Assembly (NCBI RefSeq): GCF_054482595.1
Contig: NZ_CM137008.1
Length of the DNA stretch: 64,000 nucleotides
Reading direction: 5' to 3' (one strand)
The position numbers and the translations under genes were made by a program. Under the pieces are notes generated by a model, which was given only the letters and a program-made list of their open reading frames with translations, was not told where the DNA came from and did not search any database. Positions within the stretch are counted from its first letter, which is position 1; every line of letters begins with the position of its first letter. This document shows, piece by piece, positions 34,670-48,542 of the stretch.

Positions 34670-35428
34670 ATGGATGCACTACAAACACAAACTGTTATTA
34701 GTACAACCGCGCCGCAGCCCAACTACATTCCGGGGCTGATTGCGGTGGTCGGGTGTGATGGCACCGGTAAATCCACGCTGACCACCGACCTGGTGAAATC
34801 GCTGCAACAACACTGGCAAACCGAGCGCCGCTATTTGGGGCTGCTCTCCGGCGAAGACGGCGACAAAATCAAACGATTGCCGTTGGTTGGCGTCTGGCTG
34901 GAACGGCGACTGGCGGCCAAATCCTCGAAAACCCAAAGCATGAAAACCAAATCTCCGGCGCTATGGGCGGCGGTGATTATGTACTGCTTCTCGCTGCGAA
35001 GAATGGCGAATCTACGCAAGGTTCAGCGACTGGCGCAAAGTGGCGTTCTGGTGGTCAGCGATCGCTTCCCGCAGGCTGAAATTTCGGGCTTTTATTATGA
35101 CGGACCGGGGATCGGCGTCGAACGTGCGACCGGGAAAATAAGCATGTTTCTGGCGCAGCGCGAACGGCGTTTATACCAACAAATGGCGCAATATCGCCCG
35201 GAATTAATTATTCGCCTGGGCATTGATATTGAGACTGCCATCTCCCGCAAGCCTGACCATGACTATGCCGAGCTGCAGGACAAAATCAGTGTTATGTCGA
35301 CGATTGGCTATAACGGCACAAAAATTCTTGAGATTGATTCCAGAGCGCCCTACAGCGAAGTGCTGGAACAGGCACAGAAGGCGGTTTCTCTGGTTGCCAT
35401 CGTTTCTGACCGCCGAAGTTTAACTTAA
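34670..35428 (+). CDS. yghR: P-loop NTPase, thymidylate-kinase-like fold, function unknown
   Basis: 252 aa; Walker A GCDGTGKST, VSDRFP, SRKPDHD. Confidence 0.8.
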   Translation: MDALQTQTVISTTAPQPNYIPGLIAVVGCDGTGKSTLTTDLVKSLQQHWQTERRYLGLLSGEDGDKIKRLPLVGVWLERRLAAKSSKTQSMKTKSPALWAAVIMYCFSLRRMANLRKVQRLAQSGVLVVSDRFPQAEISGFYYDGPGIGVERATGKISMFLAQRERRLYQQMAQYRPELIIRLGIDIETAISRKPDHDYAELQDKISVMSTIGYNGTKILEIDSRAPYSEVLEQAQKAVSLVAIVSDRRSLT

Positions 35429-35473
35429 GGCTGGCGGGATACTTTTTACTATCAACGATAAGGTCAGGCTGAA

Positions 35474-36823
35474 TTGGCGGGTTTTAACATCAAACATTGG
35501 TTTGCAGATGGCGCGTTTCGCACCATTATTCGCAATAGCGCCTGGTTAGGCTCCAGTAATGTCGTGAGCGCTTTGCTGGGGCTGTTGGCGCTCTCGTGTG
35601 CCGGTAAAGGGATGACGCCCGCCATGTTTGGCGTACTGGTGATTGTGCAATCGTACGCCAAGTCGATCAGCGATTTTATTAAGTTTCAGACATGGCAGCT
35701 GGTGGTTCAGTACGGAACGCCAGCCTTGACCAACAATAATCTGCAGCAATTTCGCAATGTCGTCTCATTTTCCTTCTCGCTGGATATCGTCAGCGGCGCG
35801 GTGGCGATTGTCGGCGGCATTGCCTTACTGCCATTCCTTTCCCATTCATTAGGTCTGGATGACCAAAGCTTTTGGCTGGCGGCGCTGTATTGCACGCTCA
35901 TTCCTTCAATGGCTTCCTCCACGCCGACCGGCATTCTGCGTGCGGTAGATCGCTTTGATTTGATTGCTGTACAGCAGGCGACGAAACCTTTTCTGCGCGC
36001 AGCGGGGAGCGTCGCAGCCTGGTATTTTGACTTTGGTTTTGAGGGTTTTGTTATTGCCTGGTACGTGTCGAATCTGGTTGGCGGCACCATGTACTGGTGG
36101 TTTGCCGCGCGCGAATTACGCCGCAGAAATATCCATAACGCCTTCAAATTGAATCTGTTTGAGTCTGCCCGACACATTAAAGGCGCGTGGAGTTTTGTCT
36201 GGTCAACCAACATTGCCCACTCCATCTGGTCGGCGCGTAACTCGTGCAGCACAGTGTTGGTGGGGATCGTGTTAGGACCCGCTGCCGCCGGGTTATTTAA
36301 AATCGCCATGACATTCTTCGACGCCGCCGGAACGCCAGCGGGTTTGCTGGGTAAAAGTTTTTACCCAGAGGTGATGCGTTTAGATCCGCGCACCACCAGA
36401 CCGTGGTTGTTAGGCGTGAAGTCCGGTTTACTGGCGGTCGGAATCGGTATTCTGGTGGCGCTCGCGGTGTTGATCGTCGGCAAGCCGCTCATTTCGCTGG
36501 TGTTTGGCGTTAAGTATCTCGAAGCGTATGACCTGATTCAGGTGATGCTGGGCGCAATTGTGATCTCGATGCTGGGCTTCCCTCAGGAGTCATTGCTATT
36601 GATGGCGGGAAAACAGCGCGCTTTTCTCGTGGCGCAAACCATCGCCTCAATCGGCTACATCGTATTGCTGTTCATGTTCTGTCATCTGTTTGGCGTGCTG
36701 GGAGCAGCGTTTGCTTACTTCGGTGGGCAATGTCTGGACGTGGCGCTCTCGTTAATTCCAACCTTAAAGGCATTTTTTCAGCGCCATTCCTTGCTTTATA
36801 ACGCAGCCGGAGAGAAATCCTGA
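35474..36823 (+). CDS. yghQ: MOP/Wzx-like polysaccharide or lipid flippase family inner membrane protein; start codon uncertain (ORF track begins at a TTG, first in-frame ATG is 46 codons in)
   Basis: 449 aa polytopic membrane protein; 45 bp after yghR; stop overlaps the start of the next ORF (TGATG). Confidence 0.75.
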   Translation: MAGFNIKHWFADGAFRTIIRNSAWLGSSNVVSALLGLLALSCAGKGMTPAMFGVLVIVQSYAKSISDFIKFQTWQLVVQYGTPALTNNNLQQFRNVVSFSFSLDIVSGAVAIVGGIALLPFLSHSLGLDDQSFWLAALYCTLIPSMASSTPTGILRAVDRFDLIAVQQATKPFLRAAGSVAAWYFDFGFEGFVIAWYVSNLVGGTMYWWFAARELRRRNIHNAFKLNLFESARHIKGAWSFVWSTNIAHSIWSARNSCSTVLVGIVLGPAAAGLFKIAMTFFDAAGTPAGLLGKSFYPEVMRLDPRTTRPWLLGVKSGLLAVGIGILVALAVLIVGKPLISLVFGVKYLEAYDLIQVMLGAIVISMLGFPQESLLLMAGKQRAFLVAQTIASIGYIVLLFMFCHLFGVLGAAFAYFGGQCLDVALSLIPTLKAFFQRHSLLYNAAGEKS

Positions 36824-37647
36824 TGATGAGAAAATATTTCCCGCTTGAGGCGAGCGAGCATCTATTTGTTGCGATTGAGGAAGATGATGTTGTTGATGCC
36901 CAGGTCAGTTTGCCGCCGACTATCGCACTAAGTTGTACCACCGAAATCATCCATGATAATTACGCGTTATGCCTGCAATTCTGGCTCAATGGCGTTGATC
37001 GTCAGGAATTACTTCGTTTAATTCGCAAACAAGCCAAAGGCGATGAGCTGACGACAGACGAGCGTAAACAGTTTAAATACATGCGAGCGCGCTACAAGCA
37101 CCTGCGTTTTGCGCAACGGCTGTATTTAAAGAAGCATCAGGCCGGATTTTTATTCGGCAAAACGACCGTTTTTCTGGGACGTTTTCAGGACGGATTTCGT
37201 AACGGTAAGAAAAATATTGTGTCGTATTACGGCAACCTGTTACGAATTTATTTAAGCTCTCCGGTCTGGTCGTTGGTGAACTATTCATTACGCCATAGCC
37301 AGTTAGAAAGCGTAAGCGGTTTTATTGCCTATCGGCAAAAGCAAATGCATGCCCTGAAAGAGATAATTGCCAAACCGCGACTAACCGGCAGGGAATTTCA
37401 TGATGTGCGAAAAATCATCAGCCAGCAGGTTTCTTATTACGACACCTTAAGATCGCTTGATCCTGAAAATAAAGAGGCGTTACAGATTTCCCGTTTCCTC
37501 GCCGCCATTAATGGCCTGATGGGGGATAAACACGACGACATGGTGGCGGATGATATGGAAAACCGCCAGTCGTATGATGCACCGGTGGCGCTGGATAGCG
37601 ATATTCGCCAGCGCTTAGAGCTGCTGATTTCGCGTTTTCCGCTATAA
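36823..37647 (+). CDS. Hypothetical soluble protein, function unknown
   Basis: 274 aa ORF, no predicted TM segment or signal peptide, start overlaps the yghQ stop; no family recognised from sequence alone. Confidence 0.6.
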   Translation: MMRKYFPLEASEHLFVAIEEDDVVDAQVSLPPTIALSCTTEIIHDNYALCLQFWLNGVDRQELLRLIRKQAKGDELTTDERKQFKYMRARYKHLRFAQRLYLKKHQAGFLFGKTTVFLGRFQDGFRNGKKNIVSYYGNLLRIYLSSPVWSLVNYSLRHSQLESVSGFIAYRQKQMHALKEIIAKPRLTGREFHDVRKIISQQVSYYDTLRSLDPENKEALQISRFLAAINGLMGDKHDDMVADDMENRQSYDAPVALDSDIRQRLELLISRFPL

Positions 37648-37655
37648 CCGGAGCA

Positions 37656-38219
37656 ATGATGTCATCTCGTTTGATTATTGCGCTGATTATCATGCTCTTA
37701 GCCCCGGGTGTGCAGGCACACAATTTCGTCACTGGCAAAACGGTTACCCCTGTTTATATTCAGGAAGGCGGCGAGCTGCTTCTGAATAGCGACGACGAAA
37801 TTCACTACCAAAAGTGGAACAGCACACAATTGGCGGGAAAAGTCCGAATTATCCAGTATATCGCCGGGCGTAAGTCGGCGAAGAAAAAGAACTCACTGTT
37901 AATTAAAGCGGTTGAAGCGGCAAACTTTCCGCAGGATCGTTTTCAGCCCACCACCATTGTGAACACTGATGATGCCATCTTTGGTACTGGCTATTTTGTC
38001 GTTGGCAAAATCGAAAAAAATAAACGGCGCTATCCGTGGGCGCAATTCGTTATTGACGGCAATGGACAGGGACGCGTTGCCTGGCGCTTGCCGGAGCAGA
38101 GTTCAACCATTCTGGTGCTGAATAAAGCTGGGCAAATTCAGTGGGCAAAGGACGGCAGCCTGACGCCGGAAGAGGTAGATCAGGTCATTGCGCTGGCGCA
38201 GAAACTGATCAATGAATAA
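37656..38219 (+). CDS. Secreted/periplasmic protein (possibly YtfJ-family-like)
   Basis: 187 aa; cleavable signal peptide MMSSRLIIALIIMLLAPGVQA; Shine-Dalgarno ccggag upstream; family assignment by recollection only. Confidence 0.6.
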   Translation: MMSSRLIIALIIMLLAPGVQAHNFVTGKTVTPVYIQEGGELLLNSDDEIHYQKWNSTQLAGKVRIIQYIAGRKSAKKKNSLLIKAVEAANFPQDRFQPTTIVNTDDAIFGTGYFVVGKIEKNKRRYPWAQFVIDGNGQGRVAWRLPEQSSTILVLNKAGQIQWAKDGSLTPEEVDQVIALAQKLINE

Positions 38220-38249
38220 AAAACTCAAAGGATTGAGGGCGTTAGTGAG

Positions 38250-39320
38250 ATGAAGCTGGTTGAACACTACATCATGCGTGGTACGCGCCGTCTGGTGCTG
38301 ATTATCGTCGGTTTTCTGATCTTTATTTTCGCCAGCTACTCCGCACAGCGTTATCTGACCGAAGCGGCAAATGGGACATTAGCACTTGATGTTGTGCTGG
38401 ATATCGTTTTCTACAAAGTGCTGATTGCACTGGAGATGTTGTTACCTGTTGGACTGTATGTGTCAGTTGGCGTGACGCTAGGGCAGATGTATACCGACTC
38501 GGAAATTACCGCTATCTCTGCGGCGGGGGGCAGTCCGGGACGCTTGTACAAAGCCGTTCTTTATCTGGCGATACCGCTAAGTATTTTTGTCACCCTTCTG
38601 TCGATGTATGGTCGTCCGTGGGCTTATGCGCAGATTTATCAACTGGAGCAGCAGTCGCAGTCGGAGCTGGATGTTCGCCAGTTGCGGGCAAAGAAATTTA
38701 ACACTAACGATAACGGACGAATGATCCTTTCGCAGACGGTTGATCAGGATAATAATCGCCTGACTGACGCGCTGATTTATACTTCTACTGCCAATCGAAC
38801 CCGCATTTTCCGCGCCCGTTCGGTTGATGTGGTTGACCCATCACCCGAGAAACCGACCGTTATGTTGCACAACGGCACTGCCTATCTTCTCGATCATCAG
38901 GGTCGTGACGACAACGAACAGATCTACCGTAATCTGCAATTACATCTGAATCCGCTGGATCAAAGCCCTAACGTCAAACGCAAAGCAAAATCGGTCACGG
39001 AGCTGGCGCGCTCCGCCTTTCCTGCCGATCATGCCGAACTGCAATGGCGACAAAGCCGTGGCCTGACCGCATTGTTGATGGCGCTGCTGGCCATTTCATT
39101 AAGTCGGGTAAAACCGCGGCAGGGGCGATTTTCAACGTTATTGCCACTGACGTTGCTGTTTATTGCCATTTTTTATGGCGGCGACGTCTGCCGTACGCTG
39201 GTGGCTAACGGCGCGATTCCTCTCATTCCTGGTTTGTGGTTAGTGCCCGGACTCATGCTAATGGGCCTGCTGATGCTGGTTGCACGCGACTTCACTTTGC
39301 TGCAGAAATTTTCCCGATGA
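38250..39320 (+). CDS. LptF-like permease (YjgP/YjgQ family)
   Basis: 356 aa; N-terminal TM bundle, large periplasmic domain, C-terminal TMs; conserved RxGRxS-type segment (RVKPRQGRFSTLLP) typical of LptF/LptG. Confidence 0.7.
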   Translation: MKLVEHYIMRGTRRLVLIIVGFLIFIFASYSAQRYLTEAANGTLALDVVLDIVFYKVLIALEMLLPVGLYVSVGVTLGQMYTDSEITAISAAGGSPGRLYKAVLYLAIPLSIFVTLLSMYGRPWAYAQIYQLEQQSQSELDVRQLRAKKFNTNDNGRMILSQTVDQDNNRLTDALIYTSTANRTRIFRARSVDVVDPSPEKPTVMLHNGTAYLLDHQGRDDNEQIYRNLQLHLNPLDQSPNVKRKAKSVTELARSAFPADHAELQWRQSRGLTALLMALLAISLSRVKPRQGRFSTLLPLTLLFIAIFYGGDVCRTLVANGAIPLIPGLWLVPGLMLMGLLMLVARDFTLLQKFSR

Positions 39321-40396
39321 ATGTTTTCAGTCGCTATTTAATCCGTCATCTCTTTCTCGGTTTTGCCGCCGCCGCAGGGTTATTGCTGCCGCTTTTTACT
39401 ACCTTCAACCTGATTAACGAACTGGATGATGTCAGCCCGGGCGGTTATCGCTGGACTCAGGCGGTGCTGGTGGTGCTGATGACCTTACCGCGTACACTGG
39501 TCGAACTTTCGCCGTTTATCGCCTTATTGGGAGGGATTGTTGGCCTGGGGCAGTTATCGAAAAACAGTGAGCTTACCGCCATTCGCAGCACGGGGTTTTC
39601 TATCTTCCGTATTGCACTGGTGGCGCTGGTTGCCGGGATATTGTGGACTGTTTCGTTAGGCGCGATAGATGAGTGGGTGGCGTCGCCATTGCAGCAACAG
39701 GCGCTGCAAATCAAATCGACCGCCACCGCGTTAGGGGAGGACGATGACATTACCGGCAATATGCTGTGGGCCAGGCGCGGCAATGAATTTGTGACGGTGA
39801 AATCGCTGAATGAACAGGGCCAGCCGGTGGGCGTGGAGATTTTTCATTATCGTGACGATCTCTCGCTCGAATCCTACATTTATGCACGCAGTGCCACCAT
39901 TGAAGACGACAAAACGTGGATCCTGCATGGTGTGAATCATAAAAAATGGCTGAATGGCAAAGAAACGCTGGAAACATTAGATAATCTTGCCTGGCAATCG
40001 GCCTTCACCAGTATGGATCTTGAAGAGTTATCAATGCCGGGCAATACTTTTTCTGTCCGTCAGCTTAATCATTACATCCATTATTTGCAGGAAACCGGGC
40101 AACCCAGCAGCGAATACCGCCTTGCACTGTGGGAAAAACTGGGGCAACCCATCCTGACCCTGGCGATGATTTTGCTGGCTGTGCCGTTTACCTTTAGCGC
40201 CCCGCGCTCGCCAGGGATGGGTAGCCGTCTCGCTGTAGGCGTCATCGTTGGCTTACTCACCTGGATCAGCTATCAAATCATGGTCAATCTGGGTTTGCTA
40301 TTTGCGTTGAGCGCACCTGTTTTCGCGCTCGGTTTACCGGTAGCGTTTGTGTTGATGGCGTTGAGCCTGGTGTATTGGTATGACAGACAATATTAA
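39317..40396 (+). CDS. LptG-like permease (YjgP/YjgQ family); ORF track start at 39236 is over-extended, with the likely start at the ATG overlapping the upstream stop (ATGA)
   Basis: Translation from MNVFSRYLIRHLFLGF; same architecture as LptG, including a NHYIHYLQETGQ segment comparable to the LptG region around YVKYLKSSGQ. Confidence 0.7.
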   Translation: MNVFSRYLIRHLFLGFAAAAGLLLPLFTTFNLINELDDVSPGGYRWTQAVLVVLMTLPRTLVELSPFIALLGGIVGLGQLSKNSELTAIRSTGFSIFRIALVALVAGILWTVSLGAIDEWVASPLQQQALQIKSTATALGEDDDITGNMLWARRGNEFVTVKSLNEQGQPVGVEIFHYRDDLSLESYIYARSATIEDDKTWILHGVNHKKWLNGKETLETLDNLAWQSAFTSMDLEELSMPGNTFSVRQLNHYIHYLQETGQPSSEYRLALWEKLGQPILTLAMILLAVPFTFSAPRSPGMGSRLAVGVIVGLLTWISYQIMVNLGLLFALSAPVFALGLPVAFVLMALSLVYWYDRQY

Positions 40397-40430
40397 ACCC
40401 GCCGTGGCGCAACACCACAGCGGGCTCACA

Positions 40431-41603
40431 TTACTGCTTCAGAGTAGCAAATGCTTGAATGATGGCATCGATTTGCTCACGACTGTGGGCAGCGTTTACG
40501 CTACAGCGCAGCAGCGTGATGCCTGCAGGCGCGGCAGGTGGCAGGATAAGATTCACATAAACGCCCAGCGAAATAAGCTCGCGCCAGATGCGTAAACCGT
40601 CCTCTTTCGAACCGATTATTACCGGCACTACCGGGCTAATATGTGAACTTAACTCATAACCCAGTTTTTGCAGACCGTCATACAGATGGTTGGCATTATC
40701 CATCAGCTTTTGCCGCAGCTCTGGTTGTGTGGCAATAGTTCTTAACGACGAGCGCACGGTCGCAATGCAGGACGGAGAAGGAGAGGCGGTAAAAATATAC
40801 GGGCGGCTGCCGTAGCGCAGCACTTCCATCGCTTCCGAACCGACAGCAAAACCGCCAATCGAGGCCAGACTTTTACTGAAGGTGCCAACGATAATATCCA
40901 CATCATCTTCAACGCCAACGGCTTCAGCCAGTCCGCGCCCCGTTGCGCCTAACACGCCAAACGAATGCGCTTCATCGACAATCAAATAACCACCGAGACG
41001 ACGTTTGATATCAACAATTTCCGCCAGCGGCGCAACGTCACCGAGCATGCTGTAGATACCCTCAACGATGATAATCGCCTCTTTCGCCCGTTCACCGAGG
41101 CGAACCATGCGCCGTTCCAGATCTTTAGCATCGTTATGGCGGAAACGAATAATTTCCGCGCCACCGAGAGAACAGGCGTCATAAATACTGGCGTGGCTGT
41201 CGGCATCCAGTAACACCACGGCGTTATGGTCGGCAAGTGCGCTGATGACGCCTAAATTAGCGGTATAACCGGTTGAAAAAACGATAGCGGTAGGGCGATT
41301 GAAAAACTCGGCAATCTCTTTCTCTAACGCCAGGTGCGGCGCATAACTGCCGTTTGCCATACGAGAACCGGTGGTGCCGGTGCCTTGGGCCGCTAACGCT
41401 GCCTGACCTTCGGCGATGGCATCATGATTAAAGGTTAAACCGAGGTAATTATTGGTCCCGGCCAGAATCACTTTTTTATTGCCGATCCGGCCTTCGGTGG
41501 CGGAATACACTTCATCAATACAGGTGCCAAACGGTGTTAACCCGTTGTCACTAAATTGCAGTCGCTCGCCAGCAAGGCGCGCATATTTATCGTATAGCCC
41601 CAT
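40431..41603 (-). CDS. Alpha-oxoamine synthase (PLP-dependent), serine-palmitoyltransferase-like
   Basis: 390 aa; PLP-lysine motif GTFSKS, RPYIFTAS, GVYVN, PPAAPAG, LLRCS motifs resembling bacterial SPT more than BioF. Confidence 0.8.
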   Translation of the reverse strand: MGLYDKYARLAGERLQFSDNGLTPFGTCIDEVYSATEGRIGNKKVILAGTNNYLGLTFNHDAIAEGQAALAAQGTGTTGSRMANGSYAPHLALEKEIAEFFNRPTAIVFSTGYTANLGVISALADHNAVVLLDADSHASIYDACSLGGAEIIRFRHNDAKDLERRMVRLGERAKEAIIIVEGIYSMLGDVAPLAEIVDIKRRLGGYLIVDEAHSFGVLGATGRGLAEAVGVEDDVDIIVGTFSKSLASIGGFAVGSEAMEVLRYGSRPYIFTASPSPSCIATVRSSLRTIATQPELRQKLMDNANHLYDGLQKLGYELSSHISPVVPVIIGSKEDGLRIWRELISLGVYVNLILPPAAPAGITLLRCSVNAAHSREQIDAIIQAFATLKQ

Positions 41604-41851
41604 TATTTATTCTCCAGCCATGGAAGTAGAGTTTCCATTAATTGCGCAGGGGTTTTGACATCCAGCAGAATATTAATAGGAATGGAAATATCGAATCTGT
41701 CTTCCAGCATCATTAAGAGATCCATCACTTTGATCGACTCCAGGCCAAGATCGTTGACGAGATCGCTGTCGGGCTTAATTTCCACACCGTTTTCGACCAA
41801 ATCCTGTAAACAGGAAAGGATGTAATCCATTACTATTTCACGATTTACCAT
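41603..41851 (-). CDS. Dedicated acyl carrier protein
   Basis: 82 aa acidic protein with phosphopantetheine-attachment-like motif DLGLESIKVMDL; 1-nt overlap with the downstream synthase. Confidence 0.75.
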   Translation of the reverse strand: MVNREIVMDYILSCLQDLVENGVEIKPDSDLVNDLGLESIKVMDLLMMLEDRFDISIPINILLDVKTPAQLMETLLPWLENK

Positions 41852-41882
41852 AGAAACGTTAACACACCTTTAAACAAGACAA

Positions 41883-42797
41883 TCAAAATAGCCCGTTGCG
41901 TAATGCGTGTTCCAGGCTAATCCCGGGAAACCAATTAATATCTTCAGAAATACGGTTATTACTTGCCGACCAGTCAACATGGGTTAATTCACCCAATTTC
42001 GAGCGGGTCAGCATGGGTTCTTTACCTGCCAGGCGACTCAATGCGGTACTGATATCCGCAAGGCAGGTGAGTACCGGCAGAGGAATACCAACCATTCGCA
42101 CGGAACCACAACGGGCGTCGGCGGCAAGCTGTCGTACGCGCTGCCAGTCATAGCCGCCGGGGACGCCATCGCATAATTCATAGGTTTGCGTCTGTACAGT
42201 TTCGGCGCTTAACCACTGACCCACTGCTTGCGCAAAATCGGTGACGTGCAGGAAAGAGAGTTGTGTATCTGGCGCACCAAGTCGTGGCAGCAGGCCGCGC
42301 AGCATCCAGTCAAACAGCGGTTTTAACTCTTTATCGCCGGGACCATACACGGCTGTCGGGCGAAAAACGCCCAGCGTAATTTTGTCAGCCATTGCAGTCA
42401 GCCGTTGTTCGGCGACGTATTTGGAATTTGCGTACCAGGAGAGTTCGGGATGGCGCGCCGCCAGCGAAGAGATAAACAGAAAACGTTGGCAAAAGCCGCT
42501 CTCTTTTGCTGCTTGCATCAGGCGCAGGCTGCCGTCAACGTTACAGTGGGTAAAAATCTCTTCTTTGTGTCCGCGCACTTGCCCGGCGCAATGGACCACC
42601 GCGCTGGCTCCGGCAACCAGTTCGCTAAGCGAATGTGTATCTTCCAGCGAACCGCGCACCCAAGTAAGATTATCATTGACGTGAGCGCGGGCAGTACGCG
42701 TCAATGCGCGAACGTGAAAGCCGCGGGCGAGCAGGTTATCGATAATATATTTACCGATAAACCCGGTAGCGCCCGTCACCGCGACAGTTTGATTCAT
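41883..42797 (-). CDS. NAD(P)-dependent epimerase/dehydratase-family reductase
   Basis: 304 aa; Rossmann motif VTGATGFIG at the N-terminus. Confidence 0.75.
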   Translation of the reverse strand: MNQTVAVTGATGFIGKYIIDNLLARGFHVRALTRTARAHVNDNLTWVRGSLEDTHSLSELVAGASAVVHCAGQVRGHKEEIFTHCNVDGSLRLMQAAKESGFCQRFLFISSLAARHPELSWYANSKYVAEQRLTAMADKITLGVFRPTAVYGPGDKELKPLFDWMLRGLLPRLGAPDTQLSFLHVTDFAQAVGQWLSAETVQTQTYELCDGVPGGYDWQRVRQLAADARCGSVRMVGIPLPVLTCLADISTALSRLAGKEPMLTRSKLGELTHVDWSASNNRISEDINWFPGISLEHALRNGLF

Positions 42798-44515
42798 GCC
42801 AGGGATTCCTGCACATGAAGACTGGCAGCATAAGCCTTCTGATAACGTTTTTTCGCTTCCGCACGGGCAGGCTTGCCGGAGGACGTTCGGGGAATACTGT
42901 GGGGCGGCAACAGATCGATAGCCGCGGTCACGCCAAATTCGCTTTGGATCCGTGCCGCCAGCGCGTGGATAAGCTGCCCGCGACGTTCTTCATCGCTGAT
43001 CCGACACTGGATCTGCAAAATGATTTTTTCCTGGGCGGTAACAAAAGCAATCGCATCGCCAGAATGAATTTCCGGTTCCTGTTCCGCAATATATTCAATA
43101 TCCTGCGGCCAGATATTACGGCCACGAATAATAATCAGATCTTTAATGCGTCCGGTGACATACAGATAACCGTCCAGCAGATAACCGAGGTCGCCAGTGT
43201 CTAACCAGCCCGTCGCGGCAATCTCGTCTTGCGAAGCCTGGTCGCCAAAGTAACCGCTCATCAGACTGGGACCGGAGATGCAAATATGGCCTACCACACG
43301 TTCCGCGACCGGCATACCTGCTTCATTGCGGATTTCAATACCATGTTCCGGCAACGCTTTGCCGCAGTTGACGAAAGTCGATACGGCGCGTGTCTCTGCA
43401 CCCGGCGCGACGGCTTTACCCTGATATTCGAGGATGTCGCGATCCACTTCGTTAACCACAACCCCGGAGGCTTCATCAGAGAAGCTGACAGCCAGCGCAT
43501 TTTCTGCCAGTCCGTAGCACGGCATGAAAGTTTTATTGTCAAAGTTAACCTGACGGAAACATTCAGCGAATTGATGGAGTTGTTCTGCGGAGATGGGTTC
43601 TGCACCAATACCAGCGACGCGCCAGCAGGAAAGATCCAGTTCAGCGAGATCTTTTTCATTCACGCGGCGCTGGCACAATTCATAGCCAAACGGCGGCGCA
43701 ACGGAAACGGTGCCGCGATTTTTACTGATCAATTTAAGCCATTGCAGAGGACGCATGGCAAAATCCTGAGTGCGCAAATAATCTACTGAAAGCTGCGTGG
43801 CGACCGGGGTCAGGAGAAAGCCGACCAGTCCCATATCATGGTAGAAAGGCAGCCAGGAGACGCAGCGGTCGCCAGGGCGTAATTTAATGCCGTCGTGGCT
43901 TATAGCACGTAGATTAGCCATCACTTCGCGATGGGTGATAATGACGCCACGGGGAAAACGGGTGCTGCCGGAGGTGTACTGGAGGTAGGCGATATCGTTC
44001 GGAACTGGACGCTGGAGCGCAACATCGGCTTCCGGTAATGCCTTATACCAGGCGTGGCTTAATACATGCAATTCGGGGTTGTTATGCGTGGCGGCATTGA
44101 CCAGCGGCAACCACTCATCACCAGTGATAATGGCAGCGGGCTGGCAACTTGCCAGTAAACCCTGCAGTTTGGCGCTCCAGGAATCCCGCTGACCGACGCC
44201 CATTGGAATCGCCAACGGGACGGCGACTAAGCCGGCATACTGGCAGGAAAAAAAAGCCTCTACGAACCCGCTACTGGTTTCGGCAATCAGTGCCACGCGA
44301 TCGCCTTTTTTCAGGTTCAGCGATAACAACCGCTTCGCACCAGCTTCGGCACGCGCTTTTAACGTCTGATATTCCAGTTGATCTTCAAGTTGGCAACGTC
44401 TGTCATAAAAATTCATTCCAGCGCTACTCAGAGCGGCGTAGTCCAAAGCATCAACCAGCGTTGGAAAATCGGCATAGCGCATAGGTAGGGAATGCGTAAA
44501 GATTTTATTAGACAT
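42794..44515 (-). CDS. Fatty-acyl-AMP ligase / acyl-CoA (acyl-ACP) synthetase family; start uncertain (44515 ATG preferred over 44542 TTG and 44482 ATG)
   Basis: About 573 aa ANL-superfamily adenylating enzyme; AMP-binding motif YTSGSTRFPRGV; 4-nt overlap with the downstream reductase. Confidence 0.75.
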   Translation of the reverse strand: MSNKIFTHSLPMRYADFPTLVDALDYAALSSAGMNFYDRRCQLEDQLEYQTLKARAEAGAKRLLSLNLKKGDRVALIAETSSGFVEAFFSCQYAGLVAVPLAIPMGVGQRDSWSAKLQGLLASCQPAAIITGDEWLPLVNAATHNNPELHVLSHAWYKALPEADVALQRPVPNDIAYLQYTSGSTRFPRGVIITHREVMANLRAISHDGIKLRPGDRCVSWLPFYHDMGLVGFLLTPVATQLSVDYLRTQDFAMRPLQWLKLISKNRGTVSVAPPFGYELCQRRVNEKDLAELDLSCWRVAGIGAEPISAEQLHQFAECFRQVNFDNKTFMPCYGLAENALAVSFSDEASGVVVNEVDRDILEYQGKAVAPGAETRAVSTFVNCGKALPEHGIEIRNEAGMPVAERVVGHICISGPSLMSGYFGDQASQDEIAATGWLDTGDLGYLLDGYLYVTGRIKDLIIIRGRNIWPQDIEYIAEQEPEIHSGDAIAFVTAQEKIILQIQCRISDEERRGQLIHALAARIQSEFGVTAAIDLLPPHSIPRTSSGKPARAEAKKRYQKAYAASLHVQESLA

Positions 44516-44878
44516 ATACACCACGAAAAAATTGGATATCAAAAATAAAATGACAATAATGCGGTGGATTATATAGGTATAAAAGATAAATGAGATAGTA
44601 TTTTCATTGGTGTGATATTGAACATTGATTAAAATAATGCTTTAAATCTTAACTCTGTTTATTGTGAATAATATTTAATTTATGAATATATTAAGATAAT
44701 GCCCTGGTGGGTCGCATTAAATCCACAATAGTCATGTTGATCGGCTAACGGTGGCGCTGGTGTATCGTAATTATTCATAAATATTATTTTATTTTTCCTT
44801 ATATTCATTGCGTGGATAGTTAAGGTACCGTCCGTTGCTGTTTATTTTCAGCATTAATTATTTGTTATCCACTAAGCT

Positions 44879-46021
44879 ATGGAACGCGATCTGCTGATGA
44901 TTAAAATTGAAAAAGTAATAAATAAAAACGACTTAAAGGCATTTATCGCTTTTCCGTCATTACTTTATCCCGACGATCCAAACTGGATACCCCCTTTATT
45001 CATTGAACGCAACGAGCATTTGTCTGCGAAAAATCCGGGGACGGACCATATCATCTGGCAGGCGTGGGTGGCAAAAAAAGCGGGGCAGATAGTTGGGCGT
45101 ATTACCGCGCAAATAGATACCTTGCACCGCGAGCGTTACGGCAAAGATACCGGTCATTTCGGCATGATTGACGCCATTGATGATCCGCAGGTTTTTGCCG
45201 CGTTGTTTGGCGCAGCGGAAGCGTGGTTGAAGTCACAAGGTGCAAGTAAGATCAGCGGTCCTTTCAGCCTGAATATCAATCAGGAAAGCGGATTACTGAT
45301 TGAAGGTTTCGATACACCACCCTGTGCGATGATGCCGCACGGTAAACCGTGGTATGCCGCGCATATTGAACAATTGGGTTATCACAAAGGCATTGATTTA
45401 CTGGCGTGGTGGATGCAGCGAACCGATCTCACTTTCTCTCCGGCGCTAAAAAAACTGATGGATCAGGTGCGCAAAAAGGTGACCATTCGCTGCATCAATC
45501 GCCAGCGGTTTGCCGAAGAGATGCAGATCCTGCGTGAGATTTTCAACTCTGGCTGGCAGCACAACTGGGGATTTGTGCCGTTTACCGAACATGAATTCGC
45601 GACCATGGGCGACCAACTTAAATATCTGGTGCCGGACGATATGATCTACATCGCTGAGATTGATTCTGCACCCTGCGCGTTTATTGTCGGCTTGCCGAAC
45701 ATCAACGAGGCGATTGCCGATCTGAACGGATCGCTCTTTCCCTTCGGCTGGGCAAAATTGCTGTGGCGTTTGAAAGTCAGCGGTGTGCGAACTGCGCGAG
45801 TACCGCTGATGGGCGTGCGCGACGAGTATCAGTTCAGCCGCATCGGCCCGGTGATTGCGCTGTTATTGATTGAAGCCTTACGCGATCCGTTTGCCCGCCG
45901 GAAGATCGATGCGCTGGAGATGTCATGGATCCTCGAAACCAATACAGGCATGAATAACATGCTGGAACGCATTGGGGCGGAGCCGTACAAGCGTTACCGA
46001 TTGTATGAAAAGCAGATTTAA
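44879..46021 (+). CDS. yghO: GNAT-like acyltransferase-family protein (intact here; an IS5-disrupted pseudogene in K-12, from memory)
   Basis: 380 aa uninterrupted ORF divergent from the synthase operon across a 336-bp AT-rich region; GNAT assignment is tentative. Confidence 0.65.
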   Translation: MERDLLMIKIEKVINKNDLKAFIAFPSLLYPDDPNWIPPLFIERNEHLSAKNPGTDHIIWQAWVAKKAGQIVGRITAQIDTLHRERYGKDTGHFGMIDAIDDPQVFAALFGAAEAWLKSQGASKISGPFSLNINQESGLLIEGFDTPPCAMMPHGKPWYAAHIEQLGYHKGIDLLAWWMQRTDLTFSPALKKLMDQVRKKVTIRCINRQRFAEEMQILREIFNSGWQHNWGFVPFTEHEFATMGDQLKYLVPDDMIYIAEIDSAPCAFIVGLPNINEAIADLNGSLFPFGWAKLLWRLKVSGVRTARVPLMGVRDEYQFSRIGPVIALLLIEALRDPFARRKIDALEMSWILETNTGMNNMLERIGAEPYKRYRLYEKQI

Positions 46022-46027
46022 TACCAG

Positions 46028-46792
46028 CTAACTCAGGTTCATCTCCAGCGGCACCGCCGAGCGAATCAAATGGTGGCCTTCCAGCTCGATATCGTGGAGA
46101 TTCTTTTTCACGGTCCGCACATGATCGCGTGCTGCGCGCTGGGCGACGTGCGGCAGCCGCTGCAACACCGCGTTGTAGATCCGCGCATGCTGGCGATCGA
46201 TCTGCTTTTTTTGCTGTGGTCGATGGTAGAGATTATTTACGCTGGCAAACACTGAATTAAACATCAGGTCGGTCAATGATTGCAGCGTAAACACCAGCAC
46301 CTGATTGTGAGAAGCCTGACAAATGGCGAGATGGAAAGCGTGATCCAACTGCGCATGTTCGATCAGCGAAATCTCTTTGTTGTTCTCACTGGCGGCGAGC
46401 ATTTTTTCATAACAGCGGGTTATCACAACAAAATCAGCCTGCGTTCCCAGCGTTGCCGCAAGCCTTGCCGATTCGCCCTCCAGTAATGCGCGAACGTCGA
46501 GCAGATCGTACAGCGTTCGCGGCTGCGTACTGAACAGATGGATCAGCGGGCTGGTGTCCTGCACCCGATTAAGCCGTGCGACACGAGAATCGCGACCCTG
46601 CGCCGTTTCAATAATCCCGCGCCCGCGCAGCACGGTCAGCCCTTCACGCAGTGCGGAGCGTGAGAAGCCGAGCTTTTCACACAGTCGACGTTCCGAGGGA
46701 AGCGGCTGACCGACCTTCAGTACGCCGTCGATAATTAACCGTTCGATACTCTCTGCAACCACTTCGCAAATAGGGCGACGTTCATCTTTCAT
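46028..46792 (-). CDS. glcC: GntR-family transcriptional activator of the glc operon; ORF track start at 46852 is over-extended
   Basis: Translation from MKDERRPICEVVAESIERLIIDG; GntR HTH plus FCD domain; divergent from glcD. Confidence 0.92.
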   Translation of the reverse strand: MKDERRPICEVVAESIERLIIDGVLKVGQPLPSERRLCEKLGFSRSALREGLTVLRGRGIIETAQGRDSRVARLNRVQDTSPLIHLFSTQPRTLYDLLDVRALLEGESARLAATLGTQADFVVITRCYEKMLAASENNKEISLIEHAQLDHAFHLAICQASHNQVLVFTLQSLTDLMFNSVFASVNNLYHRPQQKKQIDRQHARIYNAVLQRLPHVAQRAARDHVRTVKKNLHDIELEGHHLIRSAVPLEMNLS

Positions 46793-47042
46793 TCCCGGAC
46801 CTCGTGCACAGGTAGGACCAATTTTTCTGTACTTAACTCGCAAAACACGCACATCACGTAAGTGATTATGTTACATCAATTTAACATTGAGTTAACCAAG
46901 ACAAGGTCACAGAGCTGGAAAAAAAATGGTCTGACCGGTAGCTAAAGAGATAGACGAAAACGAAAAGCCCGCTTAATAACTGTTCACAGAAGCAGCGCGC
47001 AAAAATCAGCTGCCACACAACACAACAAAGCGAAGCCTACTC
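46793..47042. promoter_or_regulatory. Divergent glcC / glcDEFGBA control region
   Basis: 250-bp intergenic between divergently oriented glcC and glcD. Confidence 0.6.
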
Positions 47043-48542
47043 ATGAGCATCTTGTACGAAGAGCGTCTTGATGGCGCTTTACCCGATGTCGACCGCACAT
47101 CGGTACTGATGGCACTGCGTGAGCATGTCCCTGGACTTGAGATCCTGCATACCGATGAGGAGATCATTCCTTACGAGTGTGACGGGTTGAGCGCGTATCG
47201 CACGCGTCCATTACTGGTTGTTCTGCCTAAGCAGATGGAACAGGTGACATCGATTCTGGCTGTCTGCCACCGCCTGCGTGTACCGGTGGTGACCCGTGGT
47301 GCAGGCACCGGGCTTTCTGGTGGCGCGCTGCCGCTGGAAAAAGGTGTGTTGTTGGTGATGGCGCGCTTTAAAGAGATCCTCGACATTAACCCCGTTGGTC
47401 GCCGCGCGCGCGTGCAGCCAGGCGTGCGTAACCTGGCGATCTCCCAGGCCGTTGCACCGCATAATCTCTACTACGCACCGGACCCTTCCTCACAAATCGC
47501 CTGTTCCATTGGCGGCAACGTGGCAGAAAATGCCGGCGGCGTCCACTGCCTGAAATATGGTCTGACCGTACATAACCTGCTGAAAATTGAAGTGCAAACG
47601 CTGGATGGCGAGGCACTGACGCTGGGATCGGATGCGCTGGATTCGCCTGGTTTTGACCTGCTGGCGCTGTTCACCGGATCGGAAGGTATGCTCGGCGTGA
47701 CCACCGAAGTAACGGTGAAGCTGTTGCCGAAGCCGCCCGTGGCGCGGGTTCTGTTAGCCAGCTTTGACTCGGTAGAAAAAGCCGGACTTGCAGTTGGTGA
47801 CATCATCGCCAATGGCATTATCCCCGGCGGGCTGGAGATGATGGATAACCTGTCGATCCGCGCGGCGGAAGATTTTATTCATGCCGGTTATCCCGTCGAC
47901 GCCGAAGCGATTTTGTTATGCGAGCTGGACGGCGTGGAGTCTGACGTACAGGAAGACTGCGAGCGGGTCAACGACATCTTGTTGAAAGCGGGCGCGACTG
48001 ACGTCCGTCTGGCACAGGACGAAGCAGAGCGCGTACGTTTCTGGGCCGGTCGCAAAAATGCGTTCCCGGCGGTAGGACGTATCTCCCCGGATTACTACTG
48101 CATGGATGGCACCATCCCGCGTCGCGCCCTGCCTGGCGTACTGGAAGGCATTGCCCGTTTATCGCAGCAATATGATTTACGTGTTGCCAACGTCTTTCAT
48201 GCCGGAGATGGCAACATGCACCCGTTAATCCTTTTCGATGCCAACGAACCCGGTGAATTTGCCCGCGCGGAAGAGCTGGGCGGGAAGATCCTCGAACTCT
48301 GCGTTGAAGTTGGCGGCAGCATCAGTGGGGAACATGGCATCGGGCGAGAAAAAATCAATCAAATGTGCGCCCAGTTCAACAGCGATGAAATCACGACCTT
48401 CCATGCGGTCAAGGCGGCGTTTGACCCCGATGGTTTGCTGAACCCTGGGAAAAACATTCCCACGCTACACCGCTGTGCTGAATTTGGTGCCATGCATGTG
48501 CATCACGGTCATTTACCTTTCCCTGAACTGGAGCGTTTCTGA
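47043..48542 (+). CDS. glcD: Glycolate oxidase FAD-binding subunit
   Basis: 499 aa FAD-linked oxidase. Confidence 0.95.
   Translation: MSILYEERLDGALPDVDRTSVLMALREHVPGLEILHTDEEIIPYECDGLSAYRTRPLLVVLPKQMEQVTSILAVCHRLRVPVVTRGAGTGLSGGALPLEKGVLLVMARFKEILDINPVGRRARVQPGVRNLAISQAVAPHNLYYAPDPSSQIACSIGGNVAENAGGVHCLKYGLTVHNLLKIEVQTLDGEALTLGSDALDSPGFDLLALFTGSEGMLGVTTEVTVKLLPKPPVARVLLASFDSVEKAGLAVGDIIANGIIPGGLEMMDNLSIRAAEDFIHAGYPVDAEAILLCELDGVESDVQEDCERVNDILLKAGATDVRLAQDEAERVRFWAGRKNAFPAVGRISPDYYCMDGTIPRRALPGVLEGIARLSQQYDLRVANVFHAGDGNMHPLILFDANEPGEFARAEELGGKILELCVEVGGSISGEHGIGREKINQMCAQFNSDEITTFHAVKAAFDPDGLLNPGKNIPTLHRCAEFGAMHVHHGHLPFPELERF

Follow-up and report, generated by a model that had tools for sequence, protein, structure and literature searches.

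In the 64,000-nucleotide window analysed here, which is part of an Escherichia coli chromosome and 100% identical to strain XH990, five genes very probably encode the proteobacterial ACP-dependent route to dihydroceramide. In the first step of this route, the fatty acyl-AMP ligase AasR (EcFAAL) would adenylate a free fatty acid and load it onto the phosphopantetheine arm of the acyl carrier protein AcpR rather than onto CoA. The PLP-dependent synthase Spt would then condense acyl-AcpR with L-serine under loss of CO2, yielding 3-oxo-sphinganine. YghO, judged by sequence and structural model to be a tandem-GNAT orthologue of bCerS, would N-acylate the amine, and an extended SDR orthologous to CerR is predicted to reduce the 3-oxo group to give dihydroceramide; the relative order of the YghO and SDR steps is debated in the literature. 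The first two reactions have been shown experimentally, in published work, for near-identical E. coli proteins, and the YghO and SDR steps are proposed on the basis of orthology to Caulobacter enzymes, fold and conserved gene neighbourhood. The flippase candidate YghQ and paralogues of LptF and LptG would probably be responsible for lipid transport to the outer membrane.

The genes, their assignments and the first two reactions were present in the literature and in RefSeq before this analysis and are not a discovery. The first-pass annotation of the window had treated the locus as new and regarded its products as uncharacterised in E. coli; both points have to be corrected, since the five-gene cluster including yghO is already drawn in Fig. 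9 of PMC9386255 and Spt, ACP and ligase of BL21(DE3) were expressed and assayed in the same study. A modest new lead is the observation that yghT, yghS, yghR, yghQ, an orphan gene, a YtfJ paralogue and the LptF/LptG paralogues travel together with the core genes across Enterobacterales.

Organization of the core locus

Four genes lie on the minus strand: spt (40431-41603), encoding a PLP-dependent alpha-oxoamine synthase of 390 aa; acpR (41603-41851), encoding a dedicated acyl carrier protein of 82 aa with a pI of 4.05; a cerR-like gene (41883-42797) for a Rossmann-fold extended SDR of the epimerase/dehydratase family (304 aa), a predicted 3-oxo reductase; and aasR (42794-44515), encoding the AcpR-loading fatty acyl-AMP ligase, which has 573 aa when read from the ATG at 44515. 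The bCerS-type N-acyltransferase orthologue yghO (44879-46021, plus strand, 380 aa) is transcribed divergently. All five ORFs were found intact where the first-pass annotation had placed them, and its description of yghO as an intact, divergent gene of 380 codons is borne out. The overlaps of 1-4 nt that it had reported among the minus-strand genes exist at two of the three junctions, the acpR stop overlapping the spt start by 1 nt and the SDR and ligase genes overlapping by 4 nt, whereas a 31-nt spacer separates the ACP start from the reductase stop.

The divergent aasR-yghO intergenic region (44516-44878) is AT-rich with about 30% G+C (fraction 0.295 over 44483-44878, 0.304 in the composition profile) and is the presumed site of the promoters that serve yghO and the FAAL operon; a consensus promoter scan of this region gave no score above chance and an Rfam search of it no match. 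Where lptG2 and spt converge, a terminator scan revealed a hairpin (40394-40428) between the two stops, with a 16-bp stem including 9 G-C pairs and a 3-nt loop; it is a probable two-way terminator.

The synthase

The motifs GTFSKS, RPYIFTAS, PPAAPAG and LLRCS, from which the synthase had been suspected to be closer to serine palmitoyltransferase than to BioF or Kbl, were all located in its translation, and the profile searches bear the suspicion out. The protein passes the NCBIfam Spt equivalog NF047599 (599.5 bits, cut-off 500) and stays below the curated cut-offs for bioF (333.8 vs 426), Kbl (297 vs 460), CqsA (221 vs 428) and ALAS (219 vs 339). Among the solved relatives, Sphingomonas SPTs rank first with about 376 bits, followed by Kbl (203), E. 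coli BioF (175) and CqsA (125). In the alignment with S. paucimobilis SPT (2JG2, 376.7 bits), DADSHAS, VDEAHS, GTFSKS with the lysine and LLRCS with the arginine are kept, and the catalytic His, Asp-x-x-His, Lys and Arg are aligned. BioF, Kbl, HemA/ALAS and CqsA share with Spt the fold-type I PLP architecture, the Lys/His/Asp constellation and a Claisen-type decarboxylative condensation; Spt differs from them by its dedicated acyl-ACP thioester donor and by passing the Spt equivalog. RefSeq annotates the protein as "spt: serine palmitoyltransferase", and together these comparisons support its prediction as a bacterial serine palmitoyltransferase.

Direct evidence comes from the BL21(DE3) enzyme; the window Spt is 99.7% identical to a B-strain copy. 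Co-expression of AasR-Ec, AcpR-Ec and SPT-Ec of BL21(DE3) gave a compound migrating as 3-oxo-sphinganine, and in assays with L-[14C]serine SPT-Ec preferred acyl-AcpR to acyl-CoA (Padilla-Gómez et al. 2022, PMC9386255). That the synthase is instead a BioF or Kbl isozyme and its neighbours an unrelated fatty-acid activation set, as an older automatic annotation ('8-amino-7-oxononanoate synthase'), the common fold and motifs and the E values against BioF (1e-99) and Kbl (1.7e-88) could suggest, has a negligible probability in view of the sub-cut-off scores, the ranking of the solved structures and the biochemically demonstrated Spt activity.

The position corresponding to Arg378 of S. paucimobilis SPT is occupied by leucine in the window synthase. 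This arginine contacts the serine carboxylate in the Sphingomonas enzyme. A different product could therefore be envisaged, namely a CqsA-type alpha-amino- or alpha-hydroxy-ketone autoinducer or a 1-deoxy base built from alanine or glycine and acylated by YghO, the more so as alpha-oxoamine synthases are flexible in their substrates, SPTs weakly accept alanine and glycine (PMC10196870), and the FAAL has been characterised with C12 rather than C16 chains. We nevertheless regard such a non-sphingolipid amino lipid or signal as very improbable: the CqsA model falls far short of its cut-off while the Spt equivalog is passed, the label of L-[14C]serine was incorporated by SPT-Ec into the product co-migrating with 3-oxo-sphinganine (PMC9386255), and a hydrophobic residue stands at the Arg378 position in 33 of 33 ACP-linked Spt homologues examined, including that of the proven ceramide producer Caulobacter.

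Acyl carrier protein and fatty acyl-AMP ligase

AcpR matches ACP models with scores under the housekeeping cut-offs and is, as expected of a sphingolipid-dedicated ACP, small, acidic, encoded directly upstream of spt and distinct from AcpP. It is 100% identical to the B-strain protein, both being WP_000248097.1, and the BL21(DE3) protein carries 4'-phosphopantetheine and is acylated in vivo by AasR-Ec (PMC9386255).

The ligase scores 873 bits against NF006624 (cut-off 600) and 1296 bits against the crystallised E. coli FAAL (PDB 3PBK), to which it is near-identical over ORF residues 10-582; by these comparisons it is assigned to the FAAL subfamily of fatty acyl-AMP ligases. The longest ORF opens at a TTG at 44542 and PGAP places the start at the ATG at 44482; as 3PBK matches from ORF residue 10 to residue 582, the ATG at 44515 is taken as the start, which almost certainly lies downstream of the first TTG. 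EcFAAL transfers a C12 acyl group to EcACP and rejects CoA (PMC8460268). Because the published crystals contained lauroyl-adenylate and the assays used C12 (PMC8460268), no chain length can be assigned to the base with certainty.

YghO and the reductase

Sequence searches of Pfam, NCBIfam and the PDB with YghO gave no match. An AF2 model of high confidence (pLDDT 95.7, pTM 0.92) was grouped by Foldseek with the tandem-GNAT proteins 2WPW, 5KF1, 7Q3A and MshD (E values 1e-11 to 2e-15), so that the acyltransferase fold, whose absence had been named beforehand as grounds for abandoning the ceramide reading, is present in the predicted structure. Residues 8-380 are 44% identical to the product of the Caulobacter sp. 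gene at the corresponding position; for CC_1154 (bCerS), 44% identity at 98% coverage (E 1e-107) has been reported, and yghO/ECD_02850 was named the aca orthologue of this gene (PMC9386255). Sequence and model thus support YghO as an orthologue of bCerS and a predicted N-acyltransferase.

The reductase translation contains GATGFIG at residues 9-15 and YANSK (YxxxK), the motifs of an extended SDR. Its NCBIfam matches are weak and all below the cut-offs, NDUFA9-like proteins are its best PDB relatives, and its orthologues carry the Epimerase/3Beta_HSD Pfam families. Over 290 aa, it shares 36.7% identity with the product of the Caulobacter sp. gene adjoining acp-spt; the published comparison with CC_1164 gave 34% (E 7e-38), and ECD_02852 was listed as the epi orthologue, corresponding to Caulobacter CerR (PMC9386255). 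Orthology and operon position support the assignment as a CerR orthologue, predicted to catalyse the 3-oxo reduction.

Comparison with known sphingolipid loci

The locus of BL21(DE3), ECD_02850-ECD_02854 (yghO/aca, aasR, epi, acpR, spt; PMC9386255), is the same locus, in the same order and likewise between lptG2 and glcC. Compared with a B-strain copy, the window proteins are 99.7% (Spt), 100% (ACP), 96.1% (SDR), 98.4% (FAAL) and 99.5% (YghO) identical; the differences are allelic changes only, the SDR carrying 12 substitutions, the FAAL 9, and Spt and YghO 1-2, and judged from the sequences there is no sign of functional change.

In Caulobacter crescentus, the ceramide genes are spt (CC_1162), acpR (CC_1163), cerR (CC_1164), aasR (CC_1165) and bCerS (CC_1154), as attributed in later papers to Olea-Ozuna 2021 and Stankeviciute 2022. 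The same five families occur there, with spt-acpR-cerR-aasR in the same order as in E. coli, and a candidate flippase as well as LptF/LptG paralogues are encoded in the vicinity. The E. coli proteins share 53% (Spt), 38% (ACP), 37% (SDR) and 44% (bCerS) identity with those of a Caulobacter sp. locus. Each member of the Caulobacter five-gene toolkit has a counterpart in E. coli, as the first-pass annotation had proposed; profile, structure and orthology evidence supports this reading, and none of the outcomes named there as refuting it was observed. The systems differ in that Caulobacter is a proven natural producer of the lipid, whereas the E. coli system is known from genes and over-expressed proteins. 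They differ also in their surroundings: the E. coli locus lacks homologues of the Caulobacter ceramide kinase and phosphoglycerate head-group genes CC_1158-1161 (with the ceramide kinase CC_1160) and CC_1152/1153 and also of LptC2, and has instead yghR/S/T, the orphan gene of 274 codons and the YtfJ paralogue. Between pitB and glcC, neither a ceramide kinase (YegS/DAGK-like, GGDG) nor a phosphoglycerate-transfer gene was found, and the YghR/S/T proteins have thymidylate-kinase-like and not DAGK-like folds. Since such head-group genes are missing, the E. coli locus is not classed as a Caulobacter-type phosphosphingolipid (CPG) system, and its sequence does not reveal the final lipid.

Phosphosphingolipid clusters of gammaproteobacteria are known from Azotobacter vinelandii and Pseudomonas luteola (PMC11324152). 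The closest non-enterobacterial relative found was Pseudomonas marginalis L004, whose proteins are 57-76% identical to those of E. coli and whose spt-acp-SDR-FAAL genes are likewise divergent from a yghO homologue followed by LptF2-LptG2. This strain carries two YghRST-like genes and, in contrast to the E. coli locus, a YegS-type lipid kinase, a nucleotidyltransferase, an OlsC/LpxO-like hydroxylase, an MsbA-like ABC exporter and a CptA-like transferase.

Conservation, loss and expression

Among 80 loci from many phyla retrieved via YghO homologues, spt was linked, i.e. located within 10 kb of the YghO homologue, in 34, acp in 32, the SDR gene in 36 and the FAAL gene in 35; linked loci include those of Caulobacter, Nitrospira, Pseudomonas and Geobacter. 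Intact copies of the locus also occur in Serratia, Pantoea, Pluralibacter, Hafnia, Sodalis and Rouxiella, and the gene set is retained in at least seven enterobacterial genera with shuffled order and in different chromosomal contexts. The locus is present at 96-100% DNA identity and with intact ORFs in 4050 of 5426 complete E. coli genomes (about 75%). In the comparison of the window with the B-strain copy, i.e. of two E. coli strains, dN/dS was 0.07-0.17 for four core genes, the ACP being identical, and 0.03-0.09 for the neighbouring genes. Since each of the five genes also has strong family matches or orthologues, they are real genes and chance ORFs are excluded.

About a quarter of the complete E. 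coli genomes, K-12 among them, are devoid of the locus. In K-12, 8.4 kb have been lost by an IS5-associated deletion, which truncates yghQ at window position 36542; other independent losses in E. coli comprise IS5- or IS1-flanked gaps, an ISVsa5 insertion in the FAAL gene and larger deletions. Moreover, no product was detected in BL21(DE3) when Spt was over-expressed by itself or together with AcpR but without plasmid-borne AasR, despite the full chromosomal locus of this strain (PMC9386255), which argues that the native genes were silent or weakly expressed under those conditions; they appear to be poorly expressed in laboratory culture. The literature searched yielded no report that unmodified E. 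coli produces a ceramide or a sphingoid base, nor any assay of the E. coli reductase or YghO. These losses, the failure of the chromosomal copy to complement missing plasmid genes and the lack of a reported native product would fit a cryptic, decaying relic whose proteins work when over-expressed and whose lipid is never made by E. coli in nature. We consider this unlikely, because intact ORFs in three quarters of the genomes, low dN/dS in core and neighbours and retention across genera indicate selection for function. The locus is real and probably functional. If most natural E. coli strains place a ceramide-type lipid in their envelope, the textbook lipid composition derived from K-12 is incomplete and a host-relevant class of bioactive lipids has an unappreciated enterobacterial source. 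The practical value of the finding is that of a pointer.

Accessory genes and a possible wider island

Beyond the 3' end of spt, on the plus strand, lie genes for paralogues of LptF (LptF2, 38250-39320) and LptG (LptG2, 39317-40396). Like the components of the LptB2FG extractor, they pass TIGR04407 (319 bits) and TIGR04408 (306 bits), respectively, and are of similar length, but they are divergent, scoring just 94 bits against E. coli LptF (6MHU_F) and 146 bits against LptG (6MHU_G), and the locus contains no LptB or LptC gene. LptF2 was found beside bCerS in 38 and LptG2 in 41 of the 80 loci, and Caulobacter LptF2/G2 have been proposed to export sphingolipid (PMC11324152). LptF2 is a probable sphingolipid transport component, and the RefSeq designation 'LPS export permease LptF/LptG' is probably an over-annotation.

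The adjacent YtfJ-family periplasmic protein paralogue (37659-38219, plus strand, 186 aa; TIGR01626, 213.5 bits) occurs in the island of E. coli, Pluralibacter, Hafnia and Sodalis. It is preceded by the orphan gene (36823-37647, plus strand, 274 aa), which always lies 3' of yghQ; its product matched no NCBIfam or Pfam family and has only 343 homologues, of which those with a named source all stem from Enterobacterales, and in six other genera the gene adjoins yghQ and the spt operon. Full-length yghQ (35474-36823, plus strand, 449 aa) encodes a MOP/Wzx-type flippase candidate with a weak MOP flippase match and Polysacc_synt Pfam hits on its orthologues, analogous to the candidate flippase CC_1166 of Caulobacter.

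The P-loop protein YghR (34670-35428, plus strand) shows a thymidylate-kinase-like fold and a weak dTMP-kinase match; GxDGxGK[ST]T, DR[YF]PQ and RKPDH are invariant in the family alignment, and orthologues with 69-70% identity adjoin spt in Serratia and Pantoea. Its paralogue YghS (33925-34638, plus strand; AF2 pLDDT 80.6) has thymidylate and deoxynucleoside kinases as best folds (TM about 0.55) and orthologues in the same islands. The third paralogue, YghT (33059-33751, minus strand), also has a weak dTMP-kinase match, and its orthologues in the Serratia and Pantoea islands are 65-70% identical.

These genes, together with LptF2 and LptG2, are candidates for head-group modification and transport; a literature search found no paper that connects sphingolipids with the orphan gene or with yghR/S/T. 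It is possible, albeit tentative, that yghT, yghS, yghR, yghQ, the orphan gene, the YtfJ paralogue, LptF2, LptG2, spt, acpR, cerR, aasR and yghO form one 13-gene island of about 13 kb (33059-46021) which makes, flips and delivers a modified sphingolipid to the outer membrane. YghR/S/T might then catalyse the head-group step, e.g. a phosphorylation, unlike the ceramide-phosphoglycerate route of Caulobacter. If this reading is correct, yghO, yghQ, yghR, yghS and yghT of K-12 are stranded remnants left behind by the IS5-associated deletion.

The five-gene cluster and its published counterpart

The five-gene system of the window is already known: it is annotated, it has been drawn as a cluster, and three of its five proteins have been biochemically demonstrated in E. 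coli. The gene order is pitB, yghT, yghS, yghR, yghQ, a hypothetical gene, a YtfJ-family gene, "lptF" and "lptG", followed on the opposite strand by spt and the genes encoding an acyl carrier protein (ACP), an epimerase/dehydratase-family protein (SDR) and a fatty acyl-AMP ligase (FAAL), and then by yghO, glcC and glcDEFGBA. Both 38000-46900 and the longer stretch 33000-46900 are 100 % matches to E. coli XH990, a urine isolate. The five ORFs of the first-pass annotation were all found in place; its observation is confirmed, and its interpretation as a sphingolipid/ceramide-type module is supported. Of the 1-4 nt overlaps described there, those between spt and acp (1 nt) and between the SDR and ligase genes (4 nt) exist, but the SDR and ACP genes lie 31 nt apart.

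In essentially all genomes listed, the synthase gene carries the RefSeq/PGAP label "spt: serine palmitoyltransferase", and Spt has been described for E. coli B (ETEC B7A, BL21(DE3)) (Padilla-Gómez et al. 2022, PMC9386255). The same study showed that the BL21(DE3) carrier protein ECD_02853 (AcpR) takes up β-alanine and hence carries 4'-phosphopantetheine, that co-expression of ECD_02851 (AasR), ECD_02853 and ECD_02854 (Spt) yields a compound migrating as 3-oxo-sphinganine, and that E. coli Spt assayed with L-[14C]serine favours acyl-AcpR over acyl-CoA (PMC9386255). The statement that the products are uncharacterised in E. coli therefore does not hold. ECD_02852 and yghO (ECD_02850) were listed as orthologues of CC_1164 (34 % identity, E 7e-38) and CC_1154 (44 % identity, E 1e-107), respectively, and of the strains compared, C. 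crescentus and E. coli BL21 alone had the five genes in a cluster (PMC9386255, Fig. 9 and Table S2 for the orthologues). Independently, EcFAAL was found to load its cognate EcACP with a C12 acyl chain and to reject CoA (Patil et al. 2021, PMC8460268). Since the proteins of the window are 96.1-100 % identical to those of the B-lineage strain T7Express (Spt 99.7 %, ACP 100 %, SDR 96.1 %, FAAL 98.4 %, YghO 99.5 %), the published results carry over to the window.

Properties of the encoded proteins

The identity of the synthase rests on curated HMM cut-offs, a ranking of PDB bit scores and the published enzymology, which together were judged stronger than a phylogenetic tree. The protein exceeds the cut-off of the NCBIfam equivalog NF047599 for serine palmitoyltransferase (599.5 bits vs. 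500), whereas it stays below those of the models for BioF (333.8 vs. 426), Kbl (297 vs. 460), CqsA (221 vs. 428) and ALAS (219 vs. 339), which bears out the proposal of an SPT-like enzyme rather than BioF or Kbl. Among solved structures, the Sphingomonas SPTs rank first (374-377 bits), followed by Sphingobacterium SPT (264), Kbl (203), E. coli BioF (175) and CqsA (125), and in the alignment to 2JG2 the catalytic histidine, the DEAHS motif, the PLP lysine of GTFSKS and the arginine of LLRCS are all kept. Within residues 366-376 (NLILPPAAPAG, window 40476-40508), a leucine takes the place of S. paucimobilis SPT Arg378, a residue that contacts the serine carboxylate. All 33 ACP-linked Spt homologues examined, including that of Caulobacter, have L, I, V or F here, and such a hydrophobic residue seems to be a clade feature of the Spt enzymes that use acyl-ACP.

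The ACP (82 aa, pI 4.05) matches ACP models with scores under the housekeeping cut-offs. The ligase scores above the cut-off of the FAAL subfamily model (873 bits vs. 600) and is essentially the same protein as the crystallised E. coli FAAL (PDB 3PBK, 1296 bits). Three starts for its minus-strand gene lie within 44482-44542: TTG 44542 gives the longest ORF, ATG 44482 is the start chosen by PGAP and has no Shine-Dalgarno-like sequence, and ATG 44515, which is preceded by a weak GGTG, fits 3PBK, the alignment to which begins at residue 10 of the ORF. The predicted reductase belongs to the extended SDRs and has GATGFIG and YxxxK motifs, its best solved relatives being NDUFA9-like proteins.

Sequence-profile searches of YghO against Pfam, NCBIfam and PDB sequences gave no match, so that structure prediction was needed. 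An AlphaFold2 model based on 56 diverse homologues was highly confident (pLDDT 95.7, pTM 0.92), and its best fold matches were tandem-GNAT acyltransferases (E down to 2e-15), in agreement with the GNAT-like character assigned to yghO, for which lack of such a fold had been named as counter-evidence. Taken protein by protein, the Spt models, FAAL, SDR and the YghO fold thus provided none of the observations that the first-pass annotation had listed as speaking against its reading.

Distribution and conservation

A full-library search for YghO relatives returned 6442 cluster representatives, 1110 of them at E <= 1e-30. In a scan with one genome per species, at least 80 loci were obtained from Alpha-, Beta- and Gammaproteobacteria, Nitrospira, Desulfobacterota and others, with no Enterobacterales among the matches listed; enterobacterial contexts were gathered separately from contigs encoding relatives of YghO or of the orphan protein described below. 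No more than 10 kb away from the YghO homologue, the 80 loci listed contain homologues of the window's Spt in at least 34 cases, ACP in at least 32, SDR in at least 36, FAAL in at least 35, and paralogues of LptF and LptG in at least 38 and 41, respectively, these counts being lower bounds because many loci are short contigs. In a Caulobacter sp. locus, about 8 kb separate SDR-acp-spt from the YghO homologue, and the identities to the E. coli proteins (SDR 37 %, ACP 38 %, Spt 53 %, YghO 44 %) agree with the published figures.

Within E. coli, 4050 of the 5426 complete genomes contain at least 80 % of 38000-46900 at 95-100 % identity. In K-12 strains (C600 was checked), IS5 stands in place of 36543-44920 (8,378 bp): yghQ is truncated, eight genes are gone, and the promoter and first 14 codons of yghO are replaced, which accounts for the yghQ pseudogene and the different YghO N-terminus of K-12. 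Other E. coli genomes have gaps flanked by IS5 or IS1, a FAAL gene interrupted by ISVsa5, or larger deletions. YghO orthologues of about 80 % identity occur in Serratia, Pantoea, Erwinia, Pluralibacter, Kosakonia, Citrobacter amalonaticus, Mangrovibacter and Pseudocitrobacter. The dN/dS values for the window against the B strain (spt 0.07, SDR 0.15, FAAL 0.17, yghO 0.07), which come from one strain pair and small counts, are consistent with purifying selection.

Putative control signals and the question of native production

What remains of value is the question of native production in E. coli, together with the conserved accessory genes. The literature searched contained no paper reporting that unmodified E. 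coli makes a sphingoid base or ceramide. When only Spt was expressed, or AcpR and Spt without plasmid-borne AasR, BL21(DE3) formed no product despite the chromosomal locus (PMC9386255), from which we infer poor expression of the native operon in rich medium at 30 °C. The stretch of 396 bp that separates yghO from the PGAP start of the ligase gene has a G+C content of 29.5 %, and xenogeneic silencing would fit so AT-rich a divergent control region. The convergent stops of lptG2 (+) and spt (-) flank a hairpin with a 16-bp stem including 9 G-C pairs (40394-40428), which is likely a bidirectional terminator. A promoter scan of 40300-46100 gave 6 sites vs. 6.7 expected, and an Rfam scan of 33000-47200 gave 0 matches. 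The Caulobacter cluster contains genes for a ceramide kinase and for phosphoglycerate transfer, whereas the E. coli locus is without them, so that the head group, if there is any, cannot be read from the locus.

Neighbouring accessory genes

The genes to the left of the core look like parts of the same system, although the evidence from this neighbourhood is suggestive rather than proof of function, and we regard the conserved accessory genes as a tentative lead. In Serratia, Pantoea and Pluralibacter (reached via YghO) and in Hafnia, Sodalis and Rouxiella (via the orphan protein), the same genes recur in shuffled order and varied chromosomal contexts, namely YghR, YghS, YghT, YghQ, the orphan protein, the spt operon and yghO; YghR, YghS and YghT are not visible in the Pluralibacter locus, which ends early. 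LptF2/G2 are present in all six genera except Serratia and Pantoea, and YtfJ is present in four genera. The orphan protein (274 aa, 36823-37647) belongs to no NCBIfam or Pfam family and has 343 detectable relatives only, those named by source being all from Enterobacterales; its gene directly follows yghQ in every case, near the spt operon, and one source labels it "TPR repeat protein, clustered with yghQ".

The LptF/LptG paralogues (38250-40396) are named LPS export ABC transporter permease LptF/LptG by PGAP. They are divergent paralogues, with scores of only 94 and 146 bits, respectively, when compared with the LptF and LptG chains of E. coli in 6MHU, they are found together with bCerS (bacterial ceramide synthase) in about half of the 80 loci, which come from many phyla, and the naming is probably an over-call. 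No LptB or LptC gene is present in the E. coli locus. The Caulobacter sphingolipid region likewise has LptC2, LptF2, LptG2 and a candidate flippase, and a putative role in sphingolipid export has been proposed for this set (PMC11324152).

The products of yghT, yghS and yghR (33059-35428) are three P-loop paralogues of 34-46 % mutual identity, and the family alignment shows invariant GxDGxGK[ST]T, DR[YF]PQ and RKPDH motifs. A model of YghS (pLDDT 80.6) loosely resembles thymidylate/deoxynucleoside kinases (TM about 0.55), a P-loop type with 0 genes in the Caulobacter cluster. Orthology to the Caulobacter ceramide kinase CpgB was rejected, CpgB being of the DAGK/YegS type with a GGDG motif. In Serratia, Pantoea, Hafnia, Sodalis and Rouxiella, the three genes accompany the spt operon, and family members also occur in a Pseudomonas marginalis island and one betaproteobacterial island. 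Among all fetched loci, the family HMM matched L004 (P. marginalis), L020, L084 (Serratia) and L085 (Pantoea), and weakly L040 (E 7e-6), of which only L004, L020 and L040 came from the genome-wide YghO scan. So few positives among the non-enterobacterial loci of bacterial ceramide synthase (bCerS) indicate a lineage-specific accessory rather than a universal bCerS partner. No paper linking yghR/S/T/Q to sphingolipids was found in the literature searched.

In P. marginalis, whose cluster is the closest non-enterobacterial one among the loci obtained (57-76 % protein identity to E. coli), two YghRST-like genes occur together with an MsbA-like exporter, a lipid kinase of the YegS type and a hydroxylase resembling OlsC/LpxO. 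The yghO orthologue of Hafnia paralvei is adjoined by a gene for a 4'-phosphopantetheinyl transferase (4PPT_N and ACPS domains; L087, 19785-20513), an enzyme which could prime the dedicated ACP; the E. coli locus has no such gene. Directly downstream of the yghO orthologue, a gene for a DgkA-type (DAGK_prokar) lipid kinase of 119-120 aa is located in Serratia (L084, 11354-11716), Pantoea (L085, 11242-11604), Sodalis (L088, 17823-18182) and Rouxiella (L089, 17950-18309), whereas in E. coli this place is occupied by glcC.
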